The notes under the pieces were generated by a model. The model saw only the letters and a list, made by a program, of their open reading frames with translations. It was not told the origin of the DNA and searched no databases. Below are positions 19,035 to 32,000 of a DNA stretch of 32,000 nucleotides, one piece after another (the stretch's first letter is position 1; every line of letters begins with the position of its first letter). Location: positions 1,140,001 to 1,172,000 of the forward strand of contig OY781039.1 of NCBI GenBank assembly GCA_963676105.1, read 5' to 3'. Position numbers and translations under genes: made by a program. This DNA is from Erysipelotrichaceae bacterium. Its GTDB lineage: Bacteria > Bacillota_I > Bacilli_A > Erysipelotrichales > Erysipelotrichaceae.

Positions 19035-19807
19035 TTAGATCCAACCGAATTTCTTACAGGCGTTGTAAATACCATGGTTAACATTATCTTCCGTGACATA
19101 ATCTGCCTTCTCTTTTAAGATATCAACCGCATTTCCCATCGCAATACTGGTCCATCGCTTATCAAACATAACAAGGTCATTATAGTCGTCCCCAAAAACT
19201 ACCATATCTTTAATATCACCATTTAAATGTTCAATCATGTTTTCAATACCACGATGTTTTTCATCATACTGGAAAATAAGATATTCCGGTCTAAATCTAA
19301 GATGGCCGAAACTTTGAATGGTGTTAACTTTATATTCATCTTCTTTTGAAACACTTAAATAAACTTTAAAGATTTCTGATAATGATTCATAATCCAAATT
19401 TGGATCAATGATATATTCTGTAGGTTCTTGTCTTTCTCCTACTTGCTCTCTAAATAAATCATTTTTTGAATAAACCTTAATAGAATTCTAACATAACGAG
19501 AACACCAATATCATTTGCTTCTGCTTCTCTTATTAATGCTTTTGCCTTCTATAAATCGAGTGGGATATTCTCAACAAGTTTGCCATCAATGACTAAACCA
19601 CCGACACCACAACAAACCATGTTGTGAAGATTGATTTCATCTAAAATCCAACGTGCCTTTTAATGAGCACGGCCTGTCGCGATTTCAACAAAATGTCCCT
19701 AATCCTCAAGTTCTCTTTAAGCACTTAAAGCTGAAGGAACCACTTTGTTTGTTTTGATATCAGTTAAGGTTCCATCAATATAAAAAAGGAAATATTTTTT
19801 ATTCATA
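19035..19807 (-). pseudogene. Cof-type HAD phosphatase pseudogene
   Basis: Minus-strand translation from ATG 19807 gives MNKKYFLFYIDGTLTD (HAD motif I), then ...SALSA*RELED*GHFVEIATGRAH*KARW...LDL*KAKAL...LEFY*. That is five in-frame TAA/TAG codons, followed by a +1 frame change near 19480-19500 into the frame of the 120-aa track ORF (…VVFGDDYNDLVMF… = HAD motif IV). Confidence 0.8.
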
Positions 19808-22610: not shown

Positions 22611-22654
22611 ATTTCACTAGACTTCACTTTCATTAGTGTTATTTTACATCATAC

Positions 22655-22683
22655 TTTATAAAATAAATAAACGTCACTGTAAA
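22655..22683 (-). promoter_or_regulatory. Candidate sigma-A promoter of the yitJ-like gene
   Basis: The minus strand reads TTTACA-17 nt-TATAAA, about 45 nt upstream of the start codon. Confidence 0.45.
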
Positions 22684-22684
22684 T

Positions 22685-22714
22685 GTTAACTACTTTATAA
22701 ATAAAGTAGTTAAC
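22685..22714 (-). terminator. Perfect 14-bp-arm palindrome downstream of the Fic-like gene (terminator or operator)
   Basis: GTTAACTACTTTAT-aa-ATAAAGTAGTTAAC. It lies 68 nt after the Fic-like stop and directly abuts the -35 of the yitJ promoter. There is no clean U-tract. Confidence 0.4.
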
Positions 22715-22781: not shown

Positions 22782-23726
22782 TTAGAATTTTCTCCAGCAT
22801 TTTAATTCTAAAAATTCAAGTATCCCTTTATTGTCAGTCCCCTCATAATACTCAACGAGTAGTTTTTTAAATTCACTAACACTTTGTTCTGGGACAACCA
22901 GAATGCCTTCACCTTTTGAGATTAAGAAGTGATTTGCAAAAATAATTGCACTTCTTTCGTTCCCATCTTTAAATACTTGCGTTTTCATAATAAACAAACA
23001 CAATTGGATTGCCTCTTTAATGTTAGATAATTCTTCGTTTAAAATGGCGTTAATCGATTCAATAACAATTGTCTCTATTGGAATTGGTGGAATATATGTA
23101 CAACCTCCAATGGTGACGGGTATTGACCTAATTCTTCCGCCATCAACGATTAACCCTTCATTTACTAACTTACCGATATGACACAAGATTTGATAATCAC
23201 TTTCAAAATTTATGAAATCATTATCCAGAATAAATTCCCAAGCGTGTTTTAGATTTAATATTTTCTGTATATCCTTTGGTGTAACTCCATTCACTATACC
23301 ATTTTCAATAATTTCTTCAGTTTGTGGAAAAGAAGTTGCGATACCTTCAAGAACTGCTTGATCATAGATAAGTGATTTAATATTAATTCTTGCGAAGTCC
23401 AAATTAAGAACAACTCTATTATTCAGTGTCTGTTCTTTATAATCGAGCTTTGCTAGATCCTTTTCAATGTGCCGAATTTCACGTCTTAACTCTTTAGCTT
23501 CCCTTGCGTTTCTTAACAATAATTCATACAAATTATCTGAATAAACATCTACATACTTCGATGTTACTTTGCTGCCTACTCTTTTTCGTACATACAAATA
23601 CCTTTGCCCACTAATCTCTTTTACTTCAGGGGTACCATCATACGCCATTAAGCTAAGTCGTGCATTTAAATCAGATTTTAAGTGTAGTAAATTTTGAATT
23701 TCTTGTATTTTATTTACCATATACAC
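22782..23726 (-). CDS. Fic/DOC-family-like protein with a degenerate active-site motif
   Basis: 314 aa. The region QVFKDGNERSAI aligns with the Fic motif HxFx(D/E)GNGRxxR but lacks the His, the second Gly and the last Arg. The likely true start is ATG at 23720 (the track start GTG lies within the AGAGGTG RBS). Confidence 0.6.
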   Translation of the reverse strand: MYMVNKIQEIQNLLHLKSDLNARLSLMAYDGTPEVKEISGQRYLYVRKRVGSKVTSKYVDVYSDNLYELLLRNAREAKELRREIRHIEKDLAKLDYKEQTLNNRVVLNLDFARINIKSLIYDQAVLEGIATSFPQTEEIIENGIVNGVTPKDIQKILNLKHAWEFILDNDFINFESDYQILCHIGKLVNEGLIVDGGRIRSIPVTIGGCTYIPPIPIETIVIESINAILNEELSNIKEAIQLCLFIMKTQVFKDGNERSAIIFANHFLISKGEGILVVPEQSVSEFKKLLVEYYEGTDNKGILEFLELKCWRKF

Positions 23727-23772: not shown

Positions 23773-23844
23773 AATGAATATTCGATAATTACAGCATTTA
23801 TTTTATGACACCGAAGTGACACCAATAAGAGCTCTATAAACAAA

Positions 23845-23868
23845 AAAGTGCCTATTTAAGGTACTTTA
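23845..23868 (-). terminator. Junction terminator A
   Basis: The minus strand reads AAAGTACCT-loop-AGGCACTTT (one mismatch) followed by TTTGTTTAT. It lies immediately past tRNA-end mimic A. Confidence 0.5.
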
Positions 23869-23877
23869 GAGATATAA

Positions 23878-24100
23878 GGTGTACGTGACAGGAATCGTAT
23901 TACATTACCATAACTTCCCAAACACTACCATTTCATGCCGTTTCGTCCCAAATCTTTCCGAAGCTTCCCATATTAAAACTAGGGGATGATTACGGGTTTG
24001 AAAATTATGATAGATTAACTCTTACCCAAGAGTAATTTAGTTTTGCTTGTTCTATATAAAGTAACAATCTATCTATATGGTAACAATACCCACTCATGTT
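23878..24100 (-). repeat. Cassette-junction repeat A (decayed tRNA-3'-end mimic + ~200 bp arm)
   Basis: aGGTGtaCGTGACAGGAATCG has 3 changes from the consensus TGGTGCGCGTGACAGGAATCG. It is followed by an arm that aligns with copies B and C through ...CCCACTCATGTT. Confidence 0.8.
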
Positions 24101-24144
24101 ATTAACAAATACTTTGATTTTTTCATTTCAGTACATAAATAGTA

Positions 24145-24663
24145 TCATTGCAATATGTAATTAATAATGATGAGATTCTTATACACTAAAATCAAATAGA
24201 CATGATCACTAGGCATATTATCGACTGATTGATCCGCATTAATCGTAAAATACCTAAAACAATTACACCTTAAGTCGAATGGACGTAGATCTATTTTTGC
24301 TGTCCCATTAATTGTGGTTTCTTCTATAAGATTAAGAATTGGAGCACGACCGTCTATCACTTCTTGCTCTTCAATGATTTCATCATTCTCGAGATCATTA
24401 ATGAATTTATAAAAATCATTTTCTTCATTGATTTTTAGAACCATGAAACTTTCATAAATCTGTCCTTCATAAGACACCACAGTATATTGATCTTCTGTTA
24501 TATAAGGAAGAAGCTCAGCATATCTAAAGTAATCAGTAGGTTGATCTATTTTTGGATCAAGTGGATCATCTAGTATAACTGATACAATTAAAATTAGAAT
24601 TATTGTGAGAAATAGCGCAGTCAAGAACATAAAGATATATTCAAAATATTTAGATATTTTCAT
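24145..24663 (-). CDS. Hypothetical membrane-anchored protein
   Basis: 172 aa. A single N-terminal hydrophobic helix (FMFLTALFLTIILILIVSVIL), then an acidic soluble domain. No recognisable family. Confidence 0.5.
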   Translation of the reverse strand: MKISKYFEYIFMFLTALFLTIILILIVSVILDDPLDPKIDQPTDYFRYAELLPYITEDQYTVVSYEGQIYESFMVLKINEENDFYKFINDLENDEIIEEQEVIDGRAPILNLIEETTINGTAKIDLRPFDLRCNCFRYFTINADQSVDNMPSDHVYLILVYKNLIIINYILQ

Positions 24664-24742
24664 CGCATAGCATTTTCCTAATGTAAATCAACTAATCAGT
24701 AATAGTTGCCTTACATGAAACTAAGCGATCAAAGTACAGATC

Positions 24743-25930
24743 TTATAATTTAAAATTCAATAAAAAGTCTTCTATATTAATATGTTTAATTCCTTTATAT
24801 GAAAAATCCACGGTATCCATTGATAGAACTAATTTAGGATATGAGTCATTGATAGAATTTAAAACACTGAACTCTCTTTCTCTAGTCGTTTCTGAACCTA
24901 GTAAATAAGATACTTGTATATATAACTTCTCATCATTTTTAGTAGCAATAAAATCAATTTCCTGTTGATTTAACTTTCCGATATTTATAGTGTATCCTCG
25001 TCTTTTAAGTTCGATATAGACAATATTTTCTAAGATTAATTCAATGGCTGCTTCATTATTCCCAACAACGGCTTCTCTAAAACCATGGTCAGCAATAAAG
25101 TATTTTTCTTCTGTTTTTAATAATGCTTTCCCATTGATGTCATATCTTGAAGCTTTATATAATATAAAAGCCTTTTCTAGGATATCAATATAATGAAGTA
25201 TTGTATCAACACTAATTTTTATGTTTTGTGATTTTAGATACTTTGAAATAGACAAAGCTGAAAAAGTTTTAGATGTATTCGCACATAAATAAATGATAAG
25301 TTTTTCTAGTGTCGCTGAATTTCTTATGTCATATCTTTGTATAACATCTTGAAGAACGGCTGATCGAAAACTATCTCTTAGTACAGTCATTGACAAGTCA
25401 TAGTTTAAATCAAAAACAGTTATCGATGGAAGTCCACCAAAAGTTACATAATCTATGAATGTTGCTTTTTTATGATAATCTTTAAACTCTTTATAAGAAA
25501 AAGGGTGAACTAAAATCTCTACATATCTTCCAGCTAGATACGTAGACAAATCAGATGACATTAAGTCCGAATTTGATCCCGTGATATAAATATCAAACTT
25601 ATTCATCGCATGGAAAGCATTGACGGCTTTTTCCCAATTTTTTATTCTTCCTACTTCATCAAGAAACAAGTATAATGGTCCACTATTCTTTTTCTCCCAT
25701 TCTAATACCCTGTTTGTTAAATCTTCGTAGTCATTAATGTTAAAGTTCTCGGGAAGTTCAAAGTTCAGCTTAAGCACATTTATTTTACTTGTAGTATTTT
25801 TTAGTAAATCTTCAATATACATATCTAAAAGAACTGATTTACCGGAACGTCTTAATCCAGTTATAACCTTTACAAAAGGTTTATCTTTATAATCTTTTAA
25901 CTTCTGAATATAGTCTAAACGTTCAACCAT
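24743..25930 (-). CDS. AAA-type ATPase of the AAA_14/DUF4143 kind
   Basis: 395 aa. Walker A GLRRSGKS and Walker B LYLFLDEV, with a C-terminal QEIDFIATKNDEKLYIQV segment resembling the nuclease-like fold tail of this family. Confidence 0.75.
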   Translation of the reverse strand: MVERLDYIQKLKDYKDKPFVKVITGLRRSGKSVLLDMYIEDLLKNTTSKINVLKLNFELPENFNINDYEDLTNRVLEWEKKNSGPLYLFLDEVGRIKNWEKAVNAFHAMNKFDIYITGSNSDLMSSDLSTYLAGRYVEILVHPFSYKEFKDYHKKATFIDYVTFGGLPSITVFDLNYDLSMTVLRDSFRSAVLQDVIQRYDIRNSATLEKLIIYLCANTSKTFSALSISKYLKSQNIKISVDTILHYIDILEKAFILYKASRYDINGKALLKTEEKYFIADHGFREAVVGNNEAAIELILENIVYIELKRRGYTINIGKLNQQEIDFIATKNDEKLYIQVSYLLGSETTREREFSVLNSINDSYPKLVLSMDTVDFSYKGIKHINIEDFLLNFKL

Positions 25931-26089
25931 TACAATTACCTCTATTTCGATTATATTCTAAATACTTTAATATTTCAAATATTATTTCGATTATAGTCTA
26001 AATTAATATTTATCAATAAATCAAAGTAATTAATTTATTCCATAATCTTTCCTAAAGATGCATTTTTATGTAATAAAACCAAAACAAAA

Positions 26090-26111
26090 GAACATCTCTT
26101 TCAAGATGTTC
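26090..26111 (-). terminator. Junction terminator B
   Basis: The minus strand reads GAACATCT-TGAAAG-AGATGTTC followed by TTTTGTTTTGGTTTT. Confidence 0.7.
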
Positions 26112-26123
26112 CAATTTGGTACA

Positions 26124-26305
26124 TGATGCGCGTGACAGGAATCGTATTACATTCCCAAATCTTCCCACAGCTTCCCATATTAAAACTAGGGGTAAACTAG
26201 GGTTTTGAAAATTATGATAGATTGATTCTTATTCAAGAGTAATATAGTTTTGTTTGTTTTATTTGAGGCAACAAATCAATGCATACTGTAATAATACTCA
26301 CTCAA
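26124..26305 (-). repeat. Cassette-junction repeat B (tRNA-3'-end mimic with CCA changed to TCA + arm with ~41-bp internal deletion)
   Basis: TGaTGCGCGTGACAGGAATCG plus an arm. Relative to A and C it lacks the segment between two CTTCCCA motifs. Confidence 0.8.
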
Positions 26306-26327
26306 GATTTTACACATACTAAAATTT

Positions 26328-26639
26328 TTAAAATAATTTATCAGTGTCCCTACGATTATATAAAACCCTGATAATGACTACTTTCTTCATTTCTTTATTT
26401 AGATAGTAAAAAATTGAATAATTATCAATGATCATCTGCCTTAGTTCACCAGAACGAGAAGTCTCTTTTCTATACAACTGAAATCTTTCTGGCATCTCGT
26501 TTAACAAATTAATCTTATTTTCAATTCGTTTGAGCTGCTCTATTGCGATAACTGGTGATTGCAGTTCAAAAGCAATATATTCAAAAATACTTCGTAGATC
26601 ACTATCTGCTTGATATGAGACCTCAATATCGAAAGTCAT
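26328..26639 (-). CDS. Type II toxin, RelE/ParE family
   Basis: 103 aa with a sequence typical of the ParE/RelE plasmid-stabilisation family. A 4-nt ATGA overlap with the upstream antitoxin gene. Confidence 0.8.
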   Translation of the reverse strand: MTFDIEVSYQADSDLRSIFEYIAFELQSPVIAIEQLKRIENKINLLNEMPERFQLYRKETSRSGELRQMIIDNYSIFYYLNKEMKKVVIIRVLYNRRDTDKLF

Positions 26640-26953
26640 ACATTATAATCTTTGAAGATATCGGAAAAAACTTGTTTAACAGGTTTTACTCTACCTTCAT
26701 CCATATCTTTTAAACCTTTTGCCAATTCTGTGTCTATTTGTTCAATGGTCATACTACTCATATCTATTAATTTTGGTGTTGGAATTTTTACATCAAAAGG
26801 TAAACCTTTGTTAAGGATTATTTGTTTATAAAACATATTAATAGCATTGGATGCAGGTATACCAAGAATCGAGAGAATATTCTCTGCTTGTTCTTTGACC
26901 TCTGGCTCAATTCTTGCATATAGATTTGCTGTTTTTATTGCCATATCGGACAC
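26636..26953 (-). CDS. Type II antitoxin, RelB/DinJ family
   Basis: 105 aa. The N-terminal ribbon-helix-helix-like ...NLYARIEPEVKEQAENILSILGIPASNAINMFYKQI... is typical of DinJ/RelB. Confidence 0.8.
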   Translation of the reverse strand: MSDMAIKTANLYARIEPEVKEQAENILSILGIPASNAINMFYKQIILNKGLPFDVKIPTPKLIDMSSMTIEQIDTELAKGLKDMDEGRVKPVKQVFSDIFKDYNV

Positions 26954-27030
26954 TCCTTTATTCTTTTATAGATATATTATCACTCTTTGTGCATACAAAA
27001 GCAATACATATATAGTTTACTTCATGAATC

Positions 27031-27044
27031 TGCGTATATACGCA
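27031..27044. promoter_or_regulatory. Perfect 14-bp palindrome upstream of the antitoxin gene (candidate operator)
   Basis: TGCGTATATACGCA lies about 50 nt upstream (minus sense) of an extended -10 (TGaTAATAT) preceding the antitoxin RBS AAAGGAG. Confidence 0.4.
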
Positions 27045-27074
27045 TTTTTGTGCAGTTACTAATAAACAAACAAA

Positions 27075-27098
27075 AGAGGTTCTCAATTGAGAACCTCT
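27075..27098 (-). terminator. Junction terminator C
   Basis: AGAGGTTCTC-AATT-GAGAACCTCT, a perfect 10-bp stem. The minus strand continues TTTTGTTTGTTTATT. Confidence 0.8.
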
Positions 27099-27110
27099 AA
27101 TTTGTATACA

Positions 27111-27334
27111 TGGTGCGCGTGACAGGAATCGCATTACATTCCCAAAACTTCCCAAACTCTACCATTTCATGCTGTTTCGTCCCAAATCTTTCCGAAGCTT
27201 CCCATATTAAAACTAGGGGTGGACTAGGGGTATGAAAATTATGATAGATTAACTCTTACCGAAGAGTAATTTAGTTTTGTTTGTTCTATATAAAGTAACA
27301 AGTCTATGCATACGGTAATAATACCCACTCATGT
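27111..27334 (-). repeat. Cassette-junction repeat C (intact tRNA-3'-end mimic + full arm)
   Basis: The reverse complement of 27111-27131 is CGATTCCTGTCACGCGCACCA. The arm contains 4 TTCCCA-type motifs, 2 ACTAGGGG motifs 11 bp apart, and a plus-strand hairpin with a T-tract. Confidence 0.85.
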
Positions 27335-27436
27335 TTTTCCACCGTAGTACAGGACATTACATTTATAGATATAACAACAATACCAATACATGGTTTTCAT
27401 GAAAATACAGTTTGTGTACATTAATTTTGAAACTGA

Positions 27437-27772
27437 TTAATTATATACCAAAATTAATAAAGCAAGATAGATAAGAATAATCTCAAAAACGATCAATAAA
27501 GAAAAAACTTTGTAATAATTCGTTGTACTAACTTTACTGATACTATCGATTATAACAATACAAATCAAAGACAAAAACACTATTAGATATAAATGCCAAT
27601 TATTTCGCCATACACAATATATTAATATTGCATTTAAAATAGAAAATATTTTAAAATTTTCTCTTCTATGCATATTTAAGCGATATTTAAACGATTGAAA
27701 CAATGGTAAAAACAAAATTATTACAAATATATCTACCCATACATTTAGATTTTCTAAATTATAATTTATCAA
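27437..27772 (-). CDS. Small multi-pass membrane protein (candidate immunity/partner protein)
   Basis: 111 aa with 3-4 hydrophobic segments. Lies 22 nt downstream of the secreted-protein gene. Confidence 0.5.
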   Translation of the reverse strand: MINYNLENLNVWVDIFVIILFLPLFQSFKYRLNMHRRENFKIFSILNAILIYCVWRNNWHLYLIVFLSLICIVIIDSISKVSTTNYYKVFSLLIVFEIILIYLALLILVYN

Positions 27773-27794
27773 TTTCGTAACTGCTCTTATCTAC

Positions 27795-28397
27795 TTACCA
27801 AAATCCAATTGCTGGATTTGGAAAAGCGCCATTCCAATCAATTCCTAAATAAAGACCTTGCCTTCTTACTGAAGATTGTATTACATAATAAACTATTGTA
27901 CCAGCGCCTACTAACCCAACAAGCATACCAAGTGCAGTCCCGACACCTGGGTAAACACTTCCCAAAGCTGTTAATGCCGCAGTTATAGCTGCTGGGCCAA
28001 TTTCTGCTGCAGCAAATAATGTCATCATCACTTCAGAATATGTTAAGTAAACCTTCCAATCCGAAATAAAAACTCTTGTATTTAACATTTTTCCACTACT
28101 ATAAATATTACTCAAAAAAATAATATTGTTTAATCTATTACCAAAATCTGTTGAAAATCCATATGTTTCAATAATATATTCAATGGATTCAGATAAAACT
28201 AGTTTACCTTCATGATCGAAAGTAAAATACTGATAAATTTCTGATAAATTATTTAAAAAAATTTGATCAGTTATACTTATCACGTCAGAGTAACTGCTCA
28301 CAACATATTCTTCCATCTCTACGTTAGTAGAAGCATTAACAGGACTAGCTAAACTAATAAAAAACAATAATACAAATAAACTTTTTAAAACTTTCAT
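27795..28397 (-). CDS. Secreted protein with a Gly/Ala-rich hydrophobic C-terminal region (module 1 cargo)
   Basis: The track ORF starts at TTG 28412, but ATG 28397 follows the AAAGGAAG RBS. Signal peptide MKVLKSLFVLLFFISLASPVNA|ST. The C-terminus ...AAEIGPAAITAALTALGSVYPGVGTALGMLVGLVGAGTIVYYV... forms two small-xxx-small-rich helices. Confidence 0.6.
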   Translation of the reverse strand: MKVLKSLFVLLFFISLASPVNASTNVEMEEYVVSSYSDVISITDQIFLNNLSEIYQYFTFDHEGKLVLSESIEYIIETYGFSTDFGNRLNNIIFLSNIYSSGKMLNTRVFISDWKVYLTYSEVMMTLFAAAEIGPAAITAALTALGSVYPGVGTALGMLVGLVGAGTIVYYVIQSSVRRQGLYLGIDWNGAFPNPAIGFW

Positions 28398-28442
28398 AAA
28401 TCTTCCTTTCAACTTAAAATCTTAAATTAAAAATATTTATAA

Positions 28443-28508
28443 CTAAACTCTTGGAATCTTATAATCAAATAACGATATAAGCCATAATAGTAAATCTAAA
28501 TCACCCAT
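28443..28508 (-). CDS. 21-codon ORF MGDLDLLLWLISLFDYKIPRV (candidate signalling pro-peptide), copy 1
   Basis: Below the ORF-track length cutoff. It has a strong SD AAGGGAGGA 8 nt upstream of the ATG. It is divergent from the XRE/TPR regulator and upstream of the secreted-protein gene. Copy 2 differs by two nucleotides in one codon (CTT vs TTA), both encoding Leu. Confidence 0.5.
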   Translation of the reverse strand: MGDLDLLLWLISLFDYKIPRV

Positions 28509-28545
28509 TTTTTTATTCCTCCCTTAGAATAATTATAATTTAAAT

Positions 28546-28555
28546 AATCATGATT
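28546..28555. promoter_or_regulatory. Palindromic box AATCATGATT in the divergent promoter region
   Basis: A perfect 10-bp palindrome 8 nt upstream (minus sense) of a TATAAT hexamer (28532-28537) that precedes the small ORF. Conserved in copy 2 (31280-31289). Confidence 0.35.
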
Positions 28556-28582
28556 CTTGTCTATTCTTTTTTTTGATTTTAA

Positions 28583-29854
28583 ATGTTAAAGAGTCTATTA
28601 TTAGATATCATGAGCGACAAATATAAAAACAATGGCTTTAACATTACAAAATTAATCATTGATCAAAGAAAACAGCTTAAATTATCTTTAAGAGAACTTT
28701 CTCAACTAACTAAATATAGTTATCAAACATTATCTAAATATGAAACAGGTGGTATTGAATTAAATAAGAACAATCGAGTAGTTCTATTTGAACACCTACA
28801 CATAAATGCAGATGACGTTGATTATTTATCCAATGACTTTAAACAAGATTTAGACTTACTGTTTGAATCGATTGTATATGACGAACAAGCTGAAATAAGT
28901 TCACTTTTCTCCAGAATTAAGAAAGCTGAAGAATATTTAGATTACACTAAATTTAGAGAAGAGTTTATTACGCTAAAAATCATTGTATCAATCATCAATA
29001 ATGAATCTATATCACAGGAAATGTTGAATGAATCACAATTCAATTCTTTTAAGCTATCTCTTCAACAATGGATCTATGATTATATCGCTATTTATTACCT
29101 CAAAAACAATGATCTTATTAGGGCTGTAAAATATATTGATAAAGCGATATCTCTTGGGGTTCATGAATCAAATGTTGGACTTGTCAATTACCATGCAGGA
29201 ATCATCTATTCTGTCTATGGACAACTTTTAAAAGCTAGACACTATTTAGAAACAGCAGAAACTCACTTCATAAAACAAAGAAACAATATAAGACTTATTA
29301 ATCTTCAAATACAACTAACAACGGTTGAATCAAAACTAGGACAAGTCAATAAAGCACGAGCATCTTATCTTAGACTGTTAAAAGACATCGAAAAAATTAA
29401 TGATCACTATTCATTAAATGTTGTGTATCATAATCTATCCTGGTTGGAATATCGCCAAGAAAACTTTCAAGTTTCATTAGACTATCTAGATAAACTTGAG
29501 AAATCTCAAACATTAGACGAAAATGATCTCATCACCAAAATGTTATGTTTAACAGAACTTGAACAATTTGATGAATCTGATTCTATTTACAAAAACAACA
29601 CAATCTTGGATACAATGTATAAATTATATAGTGAGATTATTCACTTAGAAAATATCCATAAGATTGATAAAAACTATGAAGCGAAATGTATGGAACTTTA
29701 TCACATTATTAAAGATAAAAGAGACTTTGAAAATATTGAAATCGTTATCTTAAAACTACTAGATTACTACGAAAAGAAGCGTTTATATAAGAAAGCCTAT
29801 GAACTCACCAAAGAACTTTATAGTTACATAGATTGGGTGTATCAACTCGATTAA
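28583..29854 (+). CDS. XRE-type HTH + TPR-like transcriptional regulator (RNPP/Rgg-like architecture), copy 1
   Basis: 423 aa. N-terminal HTH ...LSLRELSQLTKYSYQTLSKYETG... and a C-terminal ~330 aa with repeated helical TPR-like units (…YYLKNNDLIRAVKYIDKAISLG…GIIYSVYGQLLKARHYLETA…). The alternative start is ATG 28610. Confidence 0.7.
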   Translation: MLKSLLLDIMSDKYKNNGFNITKLIIDQRKQLKLSLRELSQLTKYSYQTLSKYETGGIELNKNNRVVLFEHLHINADDVDYLSNDFKQDLDLLFESIVYDEQAEISSLFSRIKKAEEYLDYTKFREEFITLKIIVSIINNESISQEMLNESQFNSFKLSLQQWIYDYIAIYYLKNNDLIRAVKYIDKAISLGVHESNVGLVNYHAGIIYSVYGQLLKARHYLETAETHFIKQRNNIRLINLQIQLTTVESKLGQVNKARASYLRLLKDIEKINDHYSLNVVYHNLSWLEYRQENFQVSLDYLDKLEKSQTLDENDLITKMLCLTELEQFDESDSIYKNNTILDTMYKLYSEIIHLENIHKIDKNYEAKCMELYHIIKDKRDFENIEIVILKLLDYYEKKRLYKKAYELTKELYSYIDWVYQLD

Positions 29855-29911
29855 TTTATGAACATCTTTTAAATTGATTTTTTCTTCTTTAAATTAAACA
29901 GTAGAAACAAA

Positions 29912-29935
29912 AGAGGTTCTCAATTGAGAACCTCT
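29912..29935 (-). terminator. Junction terminator D (also positioned to terminate the + strand regulator gene)
   Basis: Same AGAGGTTCTC-AATT-GAGAACCTCT hairpin as terminator C. The minus strand continues TTTTGTTTCTACTGTTT. Confidence 0.75.
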
Positions 29936-29947
29936 AATTTGTCTACA

Positions 29948-29967
29948 TGGTGCGCGTGACAGGATTC
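29948..29967 (-). repeat. tRNA-3'-end mimic D (intact core, different arm)
   Basis: TGGTGCGCGTGACAGGA is identical to copy C, and the ~60 bp to its left (including the terminator) is identical to C apart from one base. The sequence to its right is unrelated to the A-C arm. Confidence 0.75.
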
Positions 29968-30158
29968 AACATTTTACCTGTATATGATCAACATAGACTG
30001 CTATAAACGGCTTAATCCTATCTTTTATGCACCTTAAATATACTTGATTGACATAGAATTACATCAGAGTTCTGCTAGGAGGGGAAATTTAGGTGGAATC
30101 GTAATTTTATTCATATGTAATAATGCATTCTCATGTTTATCTCAAACAATCCATTATC

Positions 30159-30437
30159 TTACTTATTAATTGAATCCTTTAACTCATATAACGTAGCTTT
30201 TTTTGTCGGTCTTCTATTAAAAATAGCTAAGTGAATAAGTAAGATTACAAAAAGTATAAACTGATTTAACCAATTCATCGATAACCAAAACCACCCACCA
30301 TTAATAGCCACAACACTTGCGTTTGTATTATCAACATATTTGGCTAGATTATAGAATAGCGAAATTGAGTTAACAAAAGTTATTACACTTAAAATAAGCA
30401 ATATTAAATCAACATCTTTAAAAAATCTCTTTACCAT
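30159..30437 (-). CDS. Small membrane protein (candidate immunity/partner protein, module 2)
   Basis: 92 aa with 2-3 hydrophobic segments. Lies 10 nt downstream of the module-2 secreted-protein gene and is unrelated in sequence to the 111-aa module-1 protein. Confidence 0.5.
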   Translation of the reverse strand: MVKRFFKDVDLILLILSVITFVNSISLFYNLAKYVDNTNASVVAINGGWFWLSMNWLNQFILFVILLIHLAIFNRRPTKKATLYELKDSINK

Positions 30438-30447
30438 ATAATTCCTT

Positions 30448-31131
30448 TCAGTACCTTAAATGTGGATTACACAAACTAGATAATACTCCAAGATACCCCA
30501 CATTGGGCACCCATCTTTCTAAATCCCATACTTTCTCAACTACGAGTTGTTTGTGGCACATATATTGATCATATAAACTACCATTGTCAATTTGAATCCC
30601 AATATAAATCGTCTTCAATTCACTCCATGCTAAATTTGCTGCAAAATCAAGCACTCTAACTGATAGTTTAGGATCCAAACTATATGTCCAATAGTTATTT
30701 CTTAAATGATATATATGCGAATAGAAATATTCATTTACAGTGCTTAAAGAAAATGTACTAAATACGTAAACATTTGAACTCGACACACTTACATTCTGTG
30801 ATACTTCATCTAGTAAATCTTTCAAAGCTTCACTCTGTTCAAATTTATTATCTGACTGATTATAAATATATGATTCTAATCTTGAATTAACATCTTGTAT
30901 CCATTTCTCGTTTTGAATAACAAAATCGCTAAGATCCTCTAATTTTAAGTTCTCTATTAAAACCATATCAGTGATTAATTGATCTCTATATTGAAATGTT
31001 TCATTATTTTCTTCTAAGATTGACTCTTCTTCCTTTGTATATAAATCTGGCATCAAAACTGTGCTCGCATTCACAGGACTAGCTAAACTAATAAAAAACA
31101 ATAATACAAATAAACTTTTTAAAACTTTCAT
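30448..31131 (-). CDS. Secreted protein, module 2 cargo (same signal peptide, unrelated mature domain)
   Basis: ATG 31131 follows the same RBS as copy 1, and the signal peptide is identical through ...SPVNA|ST. The mature part is unrelated to copy 1. The C-terminal ...YMCHKQLVVEKVWDLERWVP... loosely recalls the DUF2599-type CH...WxLE motif (low confidence, from memory). Confidence 0.6.
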   Translation of the reverse strand: MKVLKSLFVLLFFISLASPVNASTVLMPDLYTKEEESILEENNETFQYRDQLITDMVLIENLKLEDLSDFVIQNEKWIQDVNSRLESYIYNQSDNKFEQSEALKDLLDEVSQNVSVSSSNVYVFSTFSLSTVNEYFYSHIYHLRNNYWTYSLDPKLSVRVLDFAANLAWSELKTIYIGIQIDNGSLYDQYMCHKQLVVEKVWDLERWVPNVGYLGVLSSLCNPHLRY

Positions 31132-31176
31132 AAATCTTCCTTTCAACTTAAAATCTTAAATTAAAAATATTTATAA

Positions 31177-31242
31177 CTAAACTCTTGGAATCTTATAATC
31201 AAATAACGATATTAACCATAATAGTAAATCTAAATCACCCAT
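31177..31242 (-). CDS. 21-codon ORF MGDLDLLLWLISLFDYKIPRV, copy 2
   Basis: Same peptide as 28443-28508, with a synonymous Leu codon difference and the same SD. Confidence 0.5.
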   Translation of the reverse strand: MGDLDLLLWLISLFDYKIPRV

Positions 31243-31316
31243 CTTTTTATTCCTCCCTTAGAATAATTATATTTTAAATAATCATGATTCTTGTCTATTC
31301 TTTTTTTTGATTTTAA

Positions 31317-32000
31317 ATGTTAAAGCGTATAATATTAGATAATATGAGCGACACTATATCAAATAATGGCTTTAACATTACAAAATTAATCATTGATCAA
31401 AGAAAACAGCTTAAATTATCTTTAAGAGAACTTTCTCAACTAACTAAATATAGTTATCAAACATTATCTAAATATGAAACAGGTGGTATTGAATTAAATA
31501 AGAACAATCGAGTAGTTCTATTTGAACACCTACACATAAATGCAGATGACGTTGATTATTTATCCAATGACTTTAAACAAGATTTAGACTTACTGTTTGA
31601 ATCGATTGTATATGACGAACAAGCTGAAATAAGTTCACTTTTCTCCAGAATTAAGAAAGCTGAAGAATATTTAGATTACACTAAATTTAGAGAAGAGTTT
31701 ATTACGCTAAAAATCATTGTATCAATCATCAATAATGAATCTATATCACAGGAAATGTTGAATGAATCACAATTCAATTCTTTTAAGCTATCTCTTCAAC
31801 AATGGATCTATGATTATATCGCTATTTATTACCTCAAAAACAATGATCTTATTAGGGCTGTAAAATATATTGATAAAGCGATATCTCTTGGGGTTCATGA
31901 ATCAAATGTTGGACTTGTCAATTACCATGCAGGAATCATCTATTCTGTCTATGGACAACTTTTAAAAGCTAGACACTATTTAGAAACAGCAGAAACTCAC
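31317..32000 (+). CDS. XRE-type HTH + TPR-like regulator, copy 2 (partial, runs off the right edge)
   Basis: Not in the ORF track. ATG 31317 gives MLKRIILDNMSDTISNNGFNITKLIIDQRKQLKLS... From 31365 to 32000 the DNA appears identical to 28631-29266. Confidence 0.7.
   Translation, partial: MLKRIILDNMSDTISNNGFNITKLIIDQRKQLKLSLRELSQLTKYSYQTLSKYETGGIELNKNNRVVLFEHLHINADDVDYLSNDFKQDLDLLFESIVYDEQAEISSLFSRIKKAEEYLDYTKFREEFITLKIIVSIINNESISQEMLNESQFNSFKLSLQQWIYDYIAIYYLKNNDLIRAVKYIDKAISLGVHESNVGLVNYHAGIIYSVYGQLLKARHYLETAETH

Follow-up and report, generated by a model that had tools for sequence, protein, structure and literature searches.

The 32,000-nt window analysed here, from an Erysipelotrichaceae bacterium, carries a row of small gene cassettes separated by short repeats that resemble the end of a tRNA gene. 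The locus raises the question of what these repeats are and by which route the cassettes came to stand between them.

Duplicated 3' ends of tRNA-Leu(TAG)

The original prediction held that four tRNA 3'-end mimics in direct orientation divide this region into units of about 1.0, 2.2 and 2.8 kb. The repeats are real: the 21-mer TGGTGCGCGTGACAGGAATCG has four plus-strand sites in the window, all in direct orientation, against no matches expected from 100 shuffles, and the core-to-core distances of 2247, 987 and 2837 bp agree with the predicted sizes.

23877..23897, minus strand: core A, copy of the tRNA-Leu(TAG) 3' end with 3 mismatches in the 21-mer (a start at 23878 had been given)
26124..26144, minus strand: core B, 1 mismatch in the 21-mer, CCA changed to TCA
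27111..27131, minus strand: core C, no mismatches, equal to the last 21 nt of tRNA-Leu(TAG) at the related loci L006, L011, L004 and L008
29948..29963, minus strand: core D, 16-nt common core unchanged, the following bases belonging to a different arm

Comparison with related genomes traced the repeats to duplication of the 3' end of a real tRNA, given that the last 21 nt of the Erysipelotrichaceae tRNA-Leu(TAG) are identical to core C. ARAGORN detected no tRNA in the window and an Rfam search of it returned no matches; therefore, all four copies lack a tRNA 5' half, as predicted. An intact tRNA-Leu occurs in relatives (L006/L007, L014 and L026) on the strand and side expected for a minus-strand gene beyond the right edge of the window, and the anticipated pairing of a tRNA sharing the 3' end of the repeat with a neighbouring recombinase was found in relatives as tRNA-Leu(TAG) and a tyrosine integrase.

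Core decay increases with distance from the tRNA. Within the 16 nt common to all junctions (CCTGTCACGCGCACCA in the tRNA sense), D and C have no changes, B has one and A has three, and thus the predicted leftward gradient holds. The accompanying claim that D is as intact as C fails for the 21-mer, which in D (29948-29968) has 2 mismatches and ends in ...GGATTCA; these mismatches reflect another upstream arm and not decay.

Terminators, arms and cargo

As predicted, a minus-strand terminator follows each copy, with hairpins and T runs at B, C and D and an imperfect hairpin with T6 at A.

23842..23864, minus strand: imperfect terminator hairpin and T6 downstream of core A, read from the sequence; similar to the hairpin after the L027 core
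26089..26112, minus strand: beta-type terminator after core B, terminator-like hairpin with T run; this type accompanies the ATPase cassette in 4 of 5 genomes
27075..27098, minus strand: gamma-type terminator after core C, terminator-like hairpin with T run
29912..29935, minus strand: gamma-type terminator after core D, also at the 3' end of the plus-strand regulator gene

The 63-nt stretch of terminator plus core is 97% identical between C and D. Upstream of the cores, three arm families can be told apart (I, II and III), each with its own 8-mer pair at 11-nt spacing.

23806..23823, minus strand: type III arm motif on the P' side of core A, tandem 8-mers GGTGTCAC and GGTGTCAT at 11-nt spacing
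23898..24110, minus strand: type I arm (P arm) of the ATPase cassette, with TGGGAAG-like repeats, one intact CCCCTAGT, its partner CCCGTAAT and a distal box
26145..26325, minus strand: type I arm of the RelBE cassette, a 40-nt block missing from the core-proximal half
27132..27345, minus strand: type I arm of cassette 3, CCCCTAG pair at 27213 and 27224
29964..30158, minus strand: type II arm of the next unit, 8-mer pair ATTCCACC and ATTTCCCC (consensus ATTCCCCC) at 11-nt spacing, distal-box-like start; assigned by alignment with L015, L026 and L028

An arm of 160-200 bp conserved at A to C had been predicted. The conservation stood; the length did not for A and C (about 215 nt), and B measures about 180 nt owing to its 40-nt gap. 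The arm at D, of about 195 nt, is a different one. Between lineages the core-proximal part of the arm is 79-90% conserved, no higher than coding sequence. The GGTGTCAC and GGTGTCAT pair recurs at equal spacing in the type III arms of L018, L019, L026 and L027, and comparison with relatives showed that the type I pair CCCCTAGT also adjoins the integrase gene in three of them. L010 has three CCCCTAG sites within 21 kb, each in the interval that separates int from the tRNA terminator; in the window, four of its five sites lie in type I arms, typically paired 11 nt apart. We infer that the arms are putative protein-binding sites for tRNA-Leu-specific tyrosine integrases or accessory factors, and that three specificities (I, II and III) may surround one common core. 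RelBE occurs with arm I or III, and the ATPase and membrane protein pair with arm I or II; strand exchange at the core alone cannot generate this mixing of cargo and arm types.

The cassettes carry accessory genes, namely Fic, a PDC-S01-type ATPase, RelB/ParE and a pair of peptide-signalling modules.

22782..23726, minus strand: Fic/DOC-family gene (Pfam Fic)
24145..25930, minus strand: cassette 1, AAA_14/DUF4143 ATPase (24743-25930; PADLOC PDC-S01, E = 3e-140) and 172-aa membrane protein (24145-24663), by Pfam
26328..26953, minus strand: cassette 2, RelB antitoxin (26636-26953) and ParE-family toxin (26328-26639)
27437..29854, mixed strands: cassette 3, signalling-like, four ORFs
27437-27772, minus strand: cassette 3 TM protein
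27795-28397, minus strand: cassette 3 secreted protein
28443-28508, minus strand: cassette 3 21-aa peptide ORF
28583-29854, plus strand: cassette 3 HTH+TPR regulator
30159..32000, mixed strands: cassette 4, second signalling-like module, cut at the window end
30159-30437, minus strand: cassette 4 TM protein
30448-31131, minus strand: cassette 4 DUF2599 secreted protein
31177-31242, minus strand: cassette 4 peptide ORF
31317 to beyond 32000, plus strand: cassette 4 regulator

The Fic/DOC gene probably marks an older unit at the outermost end of the array, one with an eroded distal junction. A core-bounded Fic cassette is present in L007 and L014, and GC content falls from the Fic region rightwards, the array having 28.9% GC versus 32.9% for the remaining window. 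No recombinase gene was found in any cassette or among the other genes of the window.

Could the repeated module be something other than an integration junction? One hypothesis treats the arm, the tRNA fragment and the terminator as a single small RNA gene or tRNA-like module with its own function, for example, a stabilising 3' end for cassette transcripts. Minus-strand cassette operons would indeed read through arm and core to the hairpin, and terminator-like sites are enriched (9 found versus 1.5 expected). However, no tRNA, tmRNA or Rfam match was obtained, types I and III have no pairing partner for the T-arm, the fold z-score is only -1.9 and terminator-driven, three unrelated arms precede one core, and there is no convincing promoter within the arm; we consider such a role very improbable. 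No more credence can be given to the idea of a generic MITE- or REP-like repeat, dispersed between genes, whose likeness to a tRNA end is superficial. The modules are repeated and non-coding and measure about 280 nt, as such an element might, but terminal inverted repeats were not seen, and the core copies at 20 or more loci all share the orientation of the tRNA and all lie inside such arrays. The pattern used for the genome scan detects only tRNA-like and type I junctions. Furthermore, on the complete chromosome OY760660.1 the 20-mer is confined to tRNA-Leu and one 4-kb cluster downstream of it.

Arrays and integrases in related genomes

The L026 array, 5.7 kb in the orientation of the window and complete up to the chromosome, reads tRNA-Leu, gamma terminator, QS, arm I-core, RelBE, arm III-core, AbiE, arm II-core and ABC-F gene; it contains no integrase. 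L014 reads tRNA-Leu, Fic, core, ATPase, and the order of Fic and ATPase is inverted in L007 versus L014. On OY760660.1, three cores enclose two cassettes at most 27.6 kb beyond the tRNA-Leu integrase (all but 15.8 kb of the interval was read), and one of the two is the A-B (ATPase) cassette of the window, at 84.6% identity. L015 was considered as a candidate circular junction and rejected; its two arms differ.

Alignment of related strains showed that cassette content and order vary with breakpoints at core edges, in agreement with the strain variability that had been predicted. Identity between L026 and L027 is 99.92% over 3793 bp and breaks off where a core has its 3' end; between L026 and L028 it is 100% over 1618 bp and breaks off at the tRNA-proximal core, on its 5' edge, where in L028 one extra unit replaces the tRNA body.

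The prediction that no integrase is in sight is right for the window and wrong for its relatives, in which a tyrosine integrase adjoins tRNA-Leu. OY760660.1 encodes an apparently intact enzyme of 426-445 aa directly after tRNA-Leu, and all three database relatives of this family (100%, 71% and 43% identity) abut the 3' end of tRNA-Leu(TAG). All cassette junctions read CCA followed by TGTA, with hairpins of their own, in contrast to CCA followed by (A/G)AT..AAA and a different hairpin in the three type I elements that bear an integrase. Because junction bases and hairpins differ, the cassettes are not simple deletion derivatives of an integrase-bearing type I element.

Origin of the array and its known counterparts

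We propose, with a probability of roughly 80%, that the repeats are attachment-site junctions left by serial integration into the 3' end of tRNA-Leu(TAG), and that the window holds a tandem array of units resembling cis-mobilizable elements (CIMEs). The target would be a minus-strand gene beyond the right edge of the window. The attP of an incoming element would rebuild the tRNA end and bring a new terminator, displacing the old tRNA end downstream along with the P arm of the element, and repeated rounds would stack the units, the newest at the tRNA and the oldest most distant. Each unit would then consist of a terminator (P' end), cargo, P arm and core, and those in the window would be CIME-like because they have lost an integrase or never carried one. 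The hairpin after each core would also terminate the cassette operon that runs into it. Integrases would have made the window junctions, and the units may still move together with, or by, an integrase-bearing neighbour. Several observations tell against the proposal: neither excised circles nor empty junctions were seen, junction bases and hairpins differ from those of the integrase-bearing elements, cargo and arm types are mixed, and the arms are no better conserved between lineages than coding sequence.

One alternative is that the repeats are fossil scars and that present turnover proceeds by homologous recombination after DNA uptake, terminator-core-arm modules and the distal box serving as portable homology, with no ongoing site-specific recombination. 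Consistent with this idea, junction modules are homogenised within a genome (the 63 nt of C and D), a hairpin patch has been replaced between the window and L019 within otherwise orthologous sequence, arm swapping breaks at the common distal box, and both integrase and cargo have decayed (a truncated integrase in L027; a 1.1-kb cargo deletion in L018 relative to L020). We nevertheless think it unlikely, in view of the apparently intact integrase at the tRNA of a relative and of near-identical strains that share only the 16-21-nt core at the break. This is the usual length of an att core and is short for efficient RecA-dependent homologous exchange. Still more doubtful is integron-like gene capture. 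Cassettes of 1-3 kb would then be mobile independently of one another, leaving as circles and entering again at whichever core is available, with an integrase acting in trans and the order being actively shuffled. The five different array contexts of the ATPase cassette would fit, as would the inverted Fic/ATPase order, the strains 99.9% identical that differ at one internal core, the recognisable arms with their paired 8-mers and the existence of complete integrase-free arrays. Accretion, decay and cis-mobilisation explain this pattern equally, however, and the P' side of a cassette is a terminator only, without the 8-mer pairs found beside the integrase; nor was a circular junction (the arm and core of a cassette followed by its own terminator) found. 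Integron arrays are likewise rows of short, recombinase-free cassettes with a recurring recombination site between them, but here there is no IntI-type integrase, attI, Pc or attC-like hairpin site, the cassettes carry their own promoters, regulators and terminators, and what recurs between them is a tRNA 3' end with lambda-like arms.

The serial-integration reading has closer precedents. Streptococcal CIMEs have lost integration and transfer genes and kept attL and attR, newcomers integrate at the att site proximal to the target gene and so stack units, and the cargo comprises bacteriocin and other adaptive genes (PMC5704250, PMC7563491); they measure 1.2-13 kb and occupy the positions most distant from the target gene, as do the units with the most decay (PMC7563491, PMC5704250). 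The set compared comprised ICESt1/ICESt3 relatives and the tRNA-Lys(CTT) islands of S. agalactiae. Their size range overlaps the 1.0-2.8 kb units of the window, and the most decayed units are distal in both. Unlike them, the present arrays occupy tRNA-Leu(TAG) in Erysipelotrichaceae, have three to five or more units, can be integrase-free up to the tRNA (L026) and combine three arm families with one core; neither an ICE or IME nor a relaxase or T4SS was identified here, and cis-mobilisation is putative. In Prochlorococcus, tycheposons integrate at a tRNA at the proximal island end, leave partial tRNAs between elements and scattered in the island, and displace older material distally, where degenerated elements accumulate (bioRxiv 10.1101/2020.12.28.424599). 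Integration at a tRNA end, partial tRNAs as separators and distal ageing are common to both; phylum and integrases differ, and here the junction arms are well preserved and each unit is a discrete cassette running from promoter to terminator. Dehalococcoides ssrA islands follow a small RNA gene in tandem on its downstream side, with a 20-bp repeat of its 3' end bounding each island, and 15 without an integration module were proposed to be cis-mobilizable (PMC3146451); in contrast to our array, they involve a serine recombinase, a tmRNA gene and larger islands.

The original prediction had likened the array to an integron and considered it undescribed for Bacillota. Streptococcal CIMEs are published integrase-less, tandem, att-flanked units (PMC7563491, PMC5704250), and because they have already been described, the array, on this comparison, belongs to the CIME-type pattern and is not an integron-like novelty. 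It would represent a known route to variable gene islands, here in a little-studied gut lineage.

Copies of a tRNA-Leu 3′ end in the window

The original prediction held that the accessory region carries copies of a tRNA 3′ end, and these are real: the string TGGTGCGCGTGACAGGAATCG occurs on the plus strand at four sites in the window, whereas none was expected from 100 shuffles.

Matches to TGGTGCGCGTGACAGGAATCG in the window
23877, plus strand, core A, 3 mismatches
26124, plus strand, core B, 1 mismatch
27111, plus strand, core C, 0 mismatches
29948, plus strand, core D, 2 mismatches

The copy at 29948 had been taken to be intact, which is wrong for the 21-mer. In the 16-nt stretch that every junction shares (tRNA sense CCTGTCACGCGCACCA), D and C carry no changes, B carries one and A three. 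When the four sites are aligned, the same order of modules is seen on the plus strand, with a terminator hairpin followed by the core and then an arm. The arm is ~215 nt long at A and C and ~180 nt at B, where a 40-nt block is missing; D agrees with the other sites only in the terminator and in 16-17 nt at the start of the core, and then continues into a different arm. Minus-strand terminator-like sites follow B, C and D, and A has an imperfect hairpin with T6. The terminator-core stretches at 27068-27130 (C) and 29905-29967 (D) are 97% identical over 63 nt despite their different cargo, and the orthologous junction in L019, a locus from another genome, has another hairpin inside otherwise similar flanks. 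Comparison of junctions suggests that such modules exchange by gene conversion within one genome.

ARAGORN found no tRNA gene and Rfam no RNA family in the window, hence no cloverleaf and no curated family; as the fold z-score was also weak and no promoter was convincing, a reading of the copies as RNA genes was rejected. No fifth degenerate core was found to the left of the Fic gene at 3-4 mismatches, and a weak resemblance to the type III arm described below, at ~22640-22700, is the only trace there of a possible outer junction.

A search for GAWTCCTGTCACGCGCACCA, with each species represented by one genome, gave eight loci, of which four match at the 3′ end of tRNA-Leu(TAG) (Thomasclavelia spiroformis, two Erysipelotrichaceae MAGs and one Bacilli MAG). 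The others are two Saccharibacteria tRNA-Arg genes, one Faecalimonas locus and L007, the array of the chromosome OY760660.1. Core C is identical to the last 21 nt of the tRNA-Leu of that chromosome (locus L006), because this tRNA ends in ...GCAGGTTCGATTCCTGTCACGCGCACCA. The Saccharibacteria genes, tRNA-Arg(GCG) at 7745-7821 of L001 and 5834-5910 of L002, have the same final 20-mer as the Erysipelotrichaceae tRNA-Leu(TAG), which is probably a matter of common acceptor and T-stem sequence with no link to the array. They were put aside as unrelated, as was the Faecalimonas MAG (L005), which lacks both a tRNA and the flanks of the array. In a Bacilli MAG (L003, 5570-5660), a tRNA-Leu(TAG) that shares this 3′ end has a triple tandem repeat, ACCATACAAGTT, behind it, and the repeat may be the arm of a further type of element on the same target.

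In the 1.95-Mb chromosome OY760660.1, exact matches to the 20-mer, which detect tRNA-like and type I junctions only, are confined to tRNA-Leu and the array. The viral collection gave no match to the 20-mer and one to a 17-mer, the flanks of which are GC-rich and resemble no array junction; therefore, there is no sign that the elements are known phages. A metagenome scan with the core-arm I junction gave a single contig of 1.3 kb.

Arrays, integrases and strain differences at tRNA-Leu(TAG)

OY760660.1 is a complete MAG chromosome with tRNA-Leu(TAG) at 1,139,203-1,139,287 on the minus strand. A convergent tyrosine integrase gene (426 aa in the gene call, 445 aa if read from the first ATG; PF00589 and SAM-like domains) adjoins the tRNA, and up to 27.6 kb beyond it, downstream, three partial tRNA copies in the orientation of the tRNA bound two small units. 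One unit has a Fic gene; the other has an ATPase gene and a gene for a 172-aa membrane protein, and is 84.6% identical to the unit between cores A and B of the window. A type I arm and core close the far end of the interval that the integrase opens, 15.8 kb of which is unseen. In L014, the order is tRNA-Leu, Fic, core and ATPase. L026 reads tRNA-Leu, terminator, signalling cassette (~90% identical to that of the window), arm I-core, RelBE, arm III-core, AbiEii/DUF6088, arm II-core, terminator and an ABC-F gene. It holds three units within 5.7 kb and lacks an integrase, and thus a whole array can be integrase-free from end to end. The intact tRNA-Leu that heads the arrays of L014 and L026 bears out, in related genomes, the expectation of an intact tRNA on the same strand and on the predicted side. 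The window's own tRNA-Leu(TAG) would lie to the right on the minus strand, with a 3′ end of ...TTCGATTCCTGTCACGCGCACCA or a variant with a GAAT T-loop.

Differences among the arrays of related strains fall at the edges of cores. L026 matches L027 for 3793 bp at 99.92% identity, and the two split exactly after the CCA of an internal core; past the split, L026 has the AbiE unit and L027 has another hairpin, a GGTGGGTAA pair and a truncated integrase (Arm-DNA-bind_4). L026 shares 1618 bp with L028 at 100% identity, and here the split is at the 5′ edge of the tRNA-proximal core, where L026 has the tRNA body and L028 a type II-like arm with further cargo. Judging from this alignment, L028 holds one extra unit inserted beside the tRNA. 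The window resembles L028 in having a type II arm and another signalling module after core D. L018 differs from L020 by a 1.1-kb deletion within a cargo gene, and this deletion and the truncated integrase of L027 are, by their sequences, cases of decay. The strain differences fit accretion at the tRNA plus decay. The outcomes that the original prediction had named as its refutation did not arise, and its central proposal, that serial integration duplicated the tRNA end and placed the oldest unit leftmost, has good support.

Three arm families on one core

The arms adjoining the core fall into three families, each of which has its own pair of 8-mers with a start-to-start spacing of 11 nt, usually 110-135 nt from the core.

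Arm families, alignments and 8-mer pairs
Type I (alignment A2), 7 arms: window A, B and C, three in L007, and L009; pair CCCCTAGT
Type II (A4): window D, L015, L026, L028; pair consensus ATTCCCCC, window copy ATTCCACC / ATTTCCCC
Type III (A3): L014, L017, L018, L019, L026, L027; pair GGTGTCAC

The seven type I arms have a core-adjoining block of 75-115 nt that is near-invariant in stretches. Between lineages, arm conservation is similar to that of coding sequence and no higher. The CCCCTAGT pair is common to type I arms and to integrase-proximal DNA of three relatives. The family of the OY760660.1 integrase has only three members (100%, 71% and 43% identity) in a database of 5.8 billion proteins, and all three abut the 3′ end of tRNA-Leu(TAG), with CCCCTAG-type copies in the DNA that separates int from the tRNA terminator. 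CCCCTAG occurs only three times in L010, a 21-kb locus that includes the OY760660.1 integrase, each time in that position. We infer from these sequences that the paired 8-mers are putative arm-type sites for integrases or accessory proteins, and that the three arm families would represent three specificities meeting on one core. A type III pair lies directly to the left of core A (23806-23823), before the Fic gene; therefore, Fic is probably an older unit of which the outer junction has eroded. Every cassette junction reads CCA/TGTA, and the integrase-bearing type I elements have a different sequence there. Because the P′ ends (P and P′ being the two att arms of an element) are thus unlike, the cassettes do not look like products of simple deletion from that element.

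One kind of cargo can occur with more than one type of arm. RelBE is joined to arm I in the window and to arm III in L019, L026 and L027; the ATPase and membrane protein genes have arm I in the window and L007 and arm II in L015, where the cargo is 97% identical to that of L007. (L015, of 2336 bp, was considered as a circular cassette and rejected, because its two ends carry different type II arms, which makes it a linear piece of an array.) Exchange at the core cannot part an arm from its cargo. A box of ~35 nt (tRNA sense ...AAAACATGAGTGGGTATTATTACCGTATGCATAGA) forms the cargo-side start of all three arm types, just past the last stop codon of the cargo; in L017 it is also present apart from any arm.

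Positions of the distal box
Window: 24075-24110, 26290-26325, 27310-27345, 30125-30150
L019: 190-245
L017: 200-240

This distal box may be the site of arm swapping between cargos. Homologous recombination between the boxes of neighbouring units would swap the arm and remove the intervening DNA.

Cargo, known systems and meaning

The first 22600 nt of the window hold ordinary metabolic and transport genes at 32.9% GC, and the array is at 28.9% GC. In the HAD Hydrolase_3 profile, the match to the minus-strand ORF at 19035-19397 is confined to the C-terminal third (positions 187-254 of 255), and the ORF is probably a truncated gene; to its right are ~500 nt with no ORF of at least 70 aa. The array carries Fic, an AAA_14/DUF4143 ATPase that matches the candidate defence family PDC-S01 (E = 3e-140), RelB/ParE and two signalling-like modules. 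Pfam detected no recombinase or transfer gene among all cassette ORFs and all other window ORFs of at least 70 aa, and no integrase, relaxase, coupling protein or VirB4 inside the units; PHROGs and Pfam gave no phage or conjugation hallmark in the 10 kb next to the OY760660.1 int, and conjugation genes were seen nowhere. The minus-strand cassette operons traverse arm and core to reach the hairpin, and therefore, from this layout and the terminator prediction, each junction would double as the terminator of its cassette.

Conservation is 89-100% in the regulator, promoter region, peptide ORF and signal peptide of the signalling modules (window 27437-28412 and 30159-31146; L018 1322-2253). Neither the mature secreted protein nor the small membrane protein encoded behind it is related from one copy in the window to the other, or from strain to strain (~43% nucleotide identity, near chance). 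By sequence, the pair looks like a swappable pair of the effector/immunity type under a conserved control unit. A 21-aa ORF, MGDLDLLLWLISLFDYKIPRV, with a strong upstream ribosome-binding site lies at 28443-28508 and 31177-31242, both on the minus strand; it diverges from the HTH+TPR regulator of each module, precedes the secreted-protein operon and is kept as an ORF in two other lineages as MGDINLLIWLISLFDYKIPRI and MGDLNLLLWLISLFDYKIPRI. We take this arrangement to be akin to the Rgg/SHP (RRNPP) short-peptide pheromone pairs.

The original prediction likened the array to an integron and regarded it as undescribed in Bacillota, and this framing is not supported. There is no integrase in the window, and no IntI with adjacent attI and Pc promoter; the integrases of relatives are of the phage type (PF00589 with SAM-like or Arm-DNA-bind domains) and are located at the tRNA. 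Instead of attC hairpins, the junction consists of a tRNA 3′ end and an arm of ~200 nt, its sole hairpin being the terminator, and the cassettes are not promoterless. MITE or REP repeats would have many copies at unrelated loci, and the exact-match scan of OY760660.1, which detects tRNA-like and type I junctions only, gave none. Cis-mobilizable elements (CIMEs), already known from streptococcal arrays, are integrase-less units that keep attL and attR and stand in tandem at the 3′ end of a target gene, the accepted route being integration, decay and integration of a newcomer at the target-proximal site (PMC5704250). Classical CIMEs of Streptococcus salivarius span 1.2-13 kb and are always the units farthest from the target gene, and for 303 S. 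agalactiae genomes the same paper cites a survey with 215 CIMEs that adjoin the tRNA-Lys(CTT) gene at its 3′ end (PMC7563491). Similar stacks are found in the tycheposon islands of Prochlorococcus, with partial tRNA repeats (bioRxiv 10.1101/2020.12.28.424599), and in the ssrA islands of Dehalococcoides, with tmRNA repeats, 15 of them lacking an integration module (PMC3146451). Three features of CIMEs and tandem accretion are present here, namely four cores that match the 3′ end of tRNA-Leu(TAG), units free of integrase and transfer genes, and att sites related to those of an integrase-bearing element of the same specificity (in an interval of which 15.8 kb is unseen). The architecture follows the rules of accretion and decay known for streptococcal CIMEs and tRNA- or tmRNA-linked islands.

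Alternatively, the arrays might be a working gene-capture system, in which integrases provided in trans would cut out single small promoter-to-terminator cassettes and insert them anew at any tRNA-Leu core. Each cassette would carry only a P arm with its type-specific 8-mer pair, types I-III being interchangeable "address labels" on a shared core that could swap among cargos through the shared distal box. We consider this unlikely; if true, it would constitute a tyrosine-integrase, tRNA-anchored analogue of the integron for defence, toxin-antitoxin and bacteriocin-like modules in gut Erysipelotrichaceae.

On the preferred reading of accretion and decay, no new mechanism is shown, and the notable details are that arrays can lack an integrase all the way to the tRNA, that a single core adjoins three arm families, and that arms may swap at a shared box. 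The 16-nt core, the three arm families and the paired 8-mers are clean landmarks for such units in metagenomes. In a poorly studied lineage of Erysipelotrichaceae, the region downstream of tRNA-Leu(TAG) is a hot spot that varies between strains, with cargo including a candidate defence ATPase of the PDC-S01 type, Fic, AbiE, RelB/ParE and peptide-signalling modules with swappable pairs of secreted and membrane proteins.
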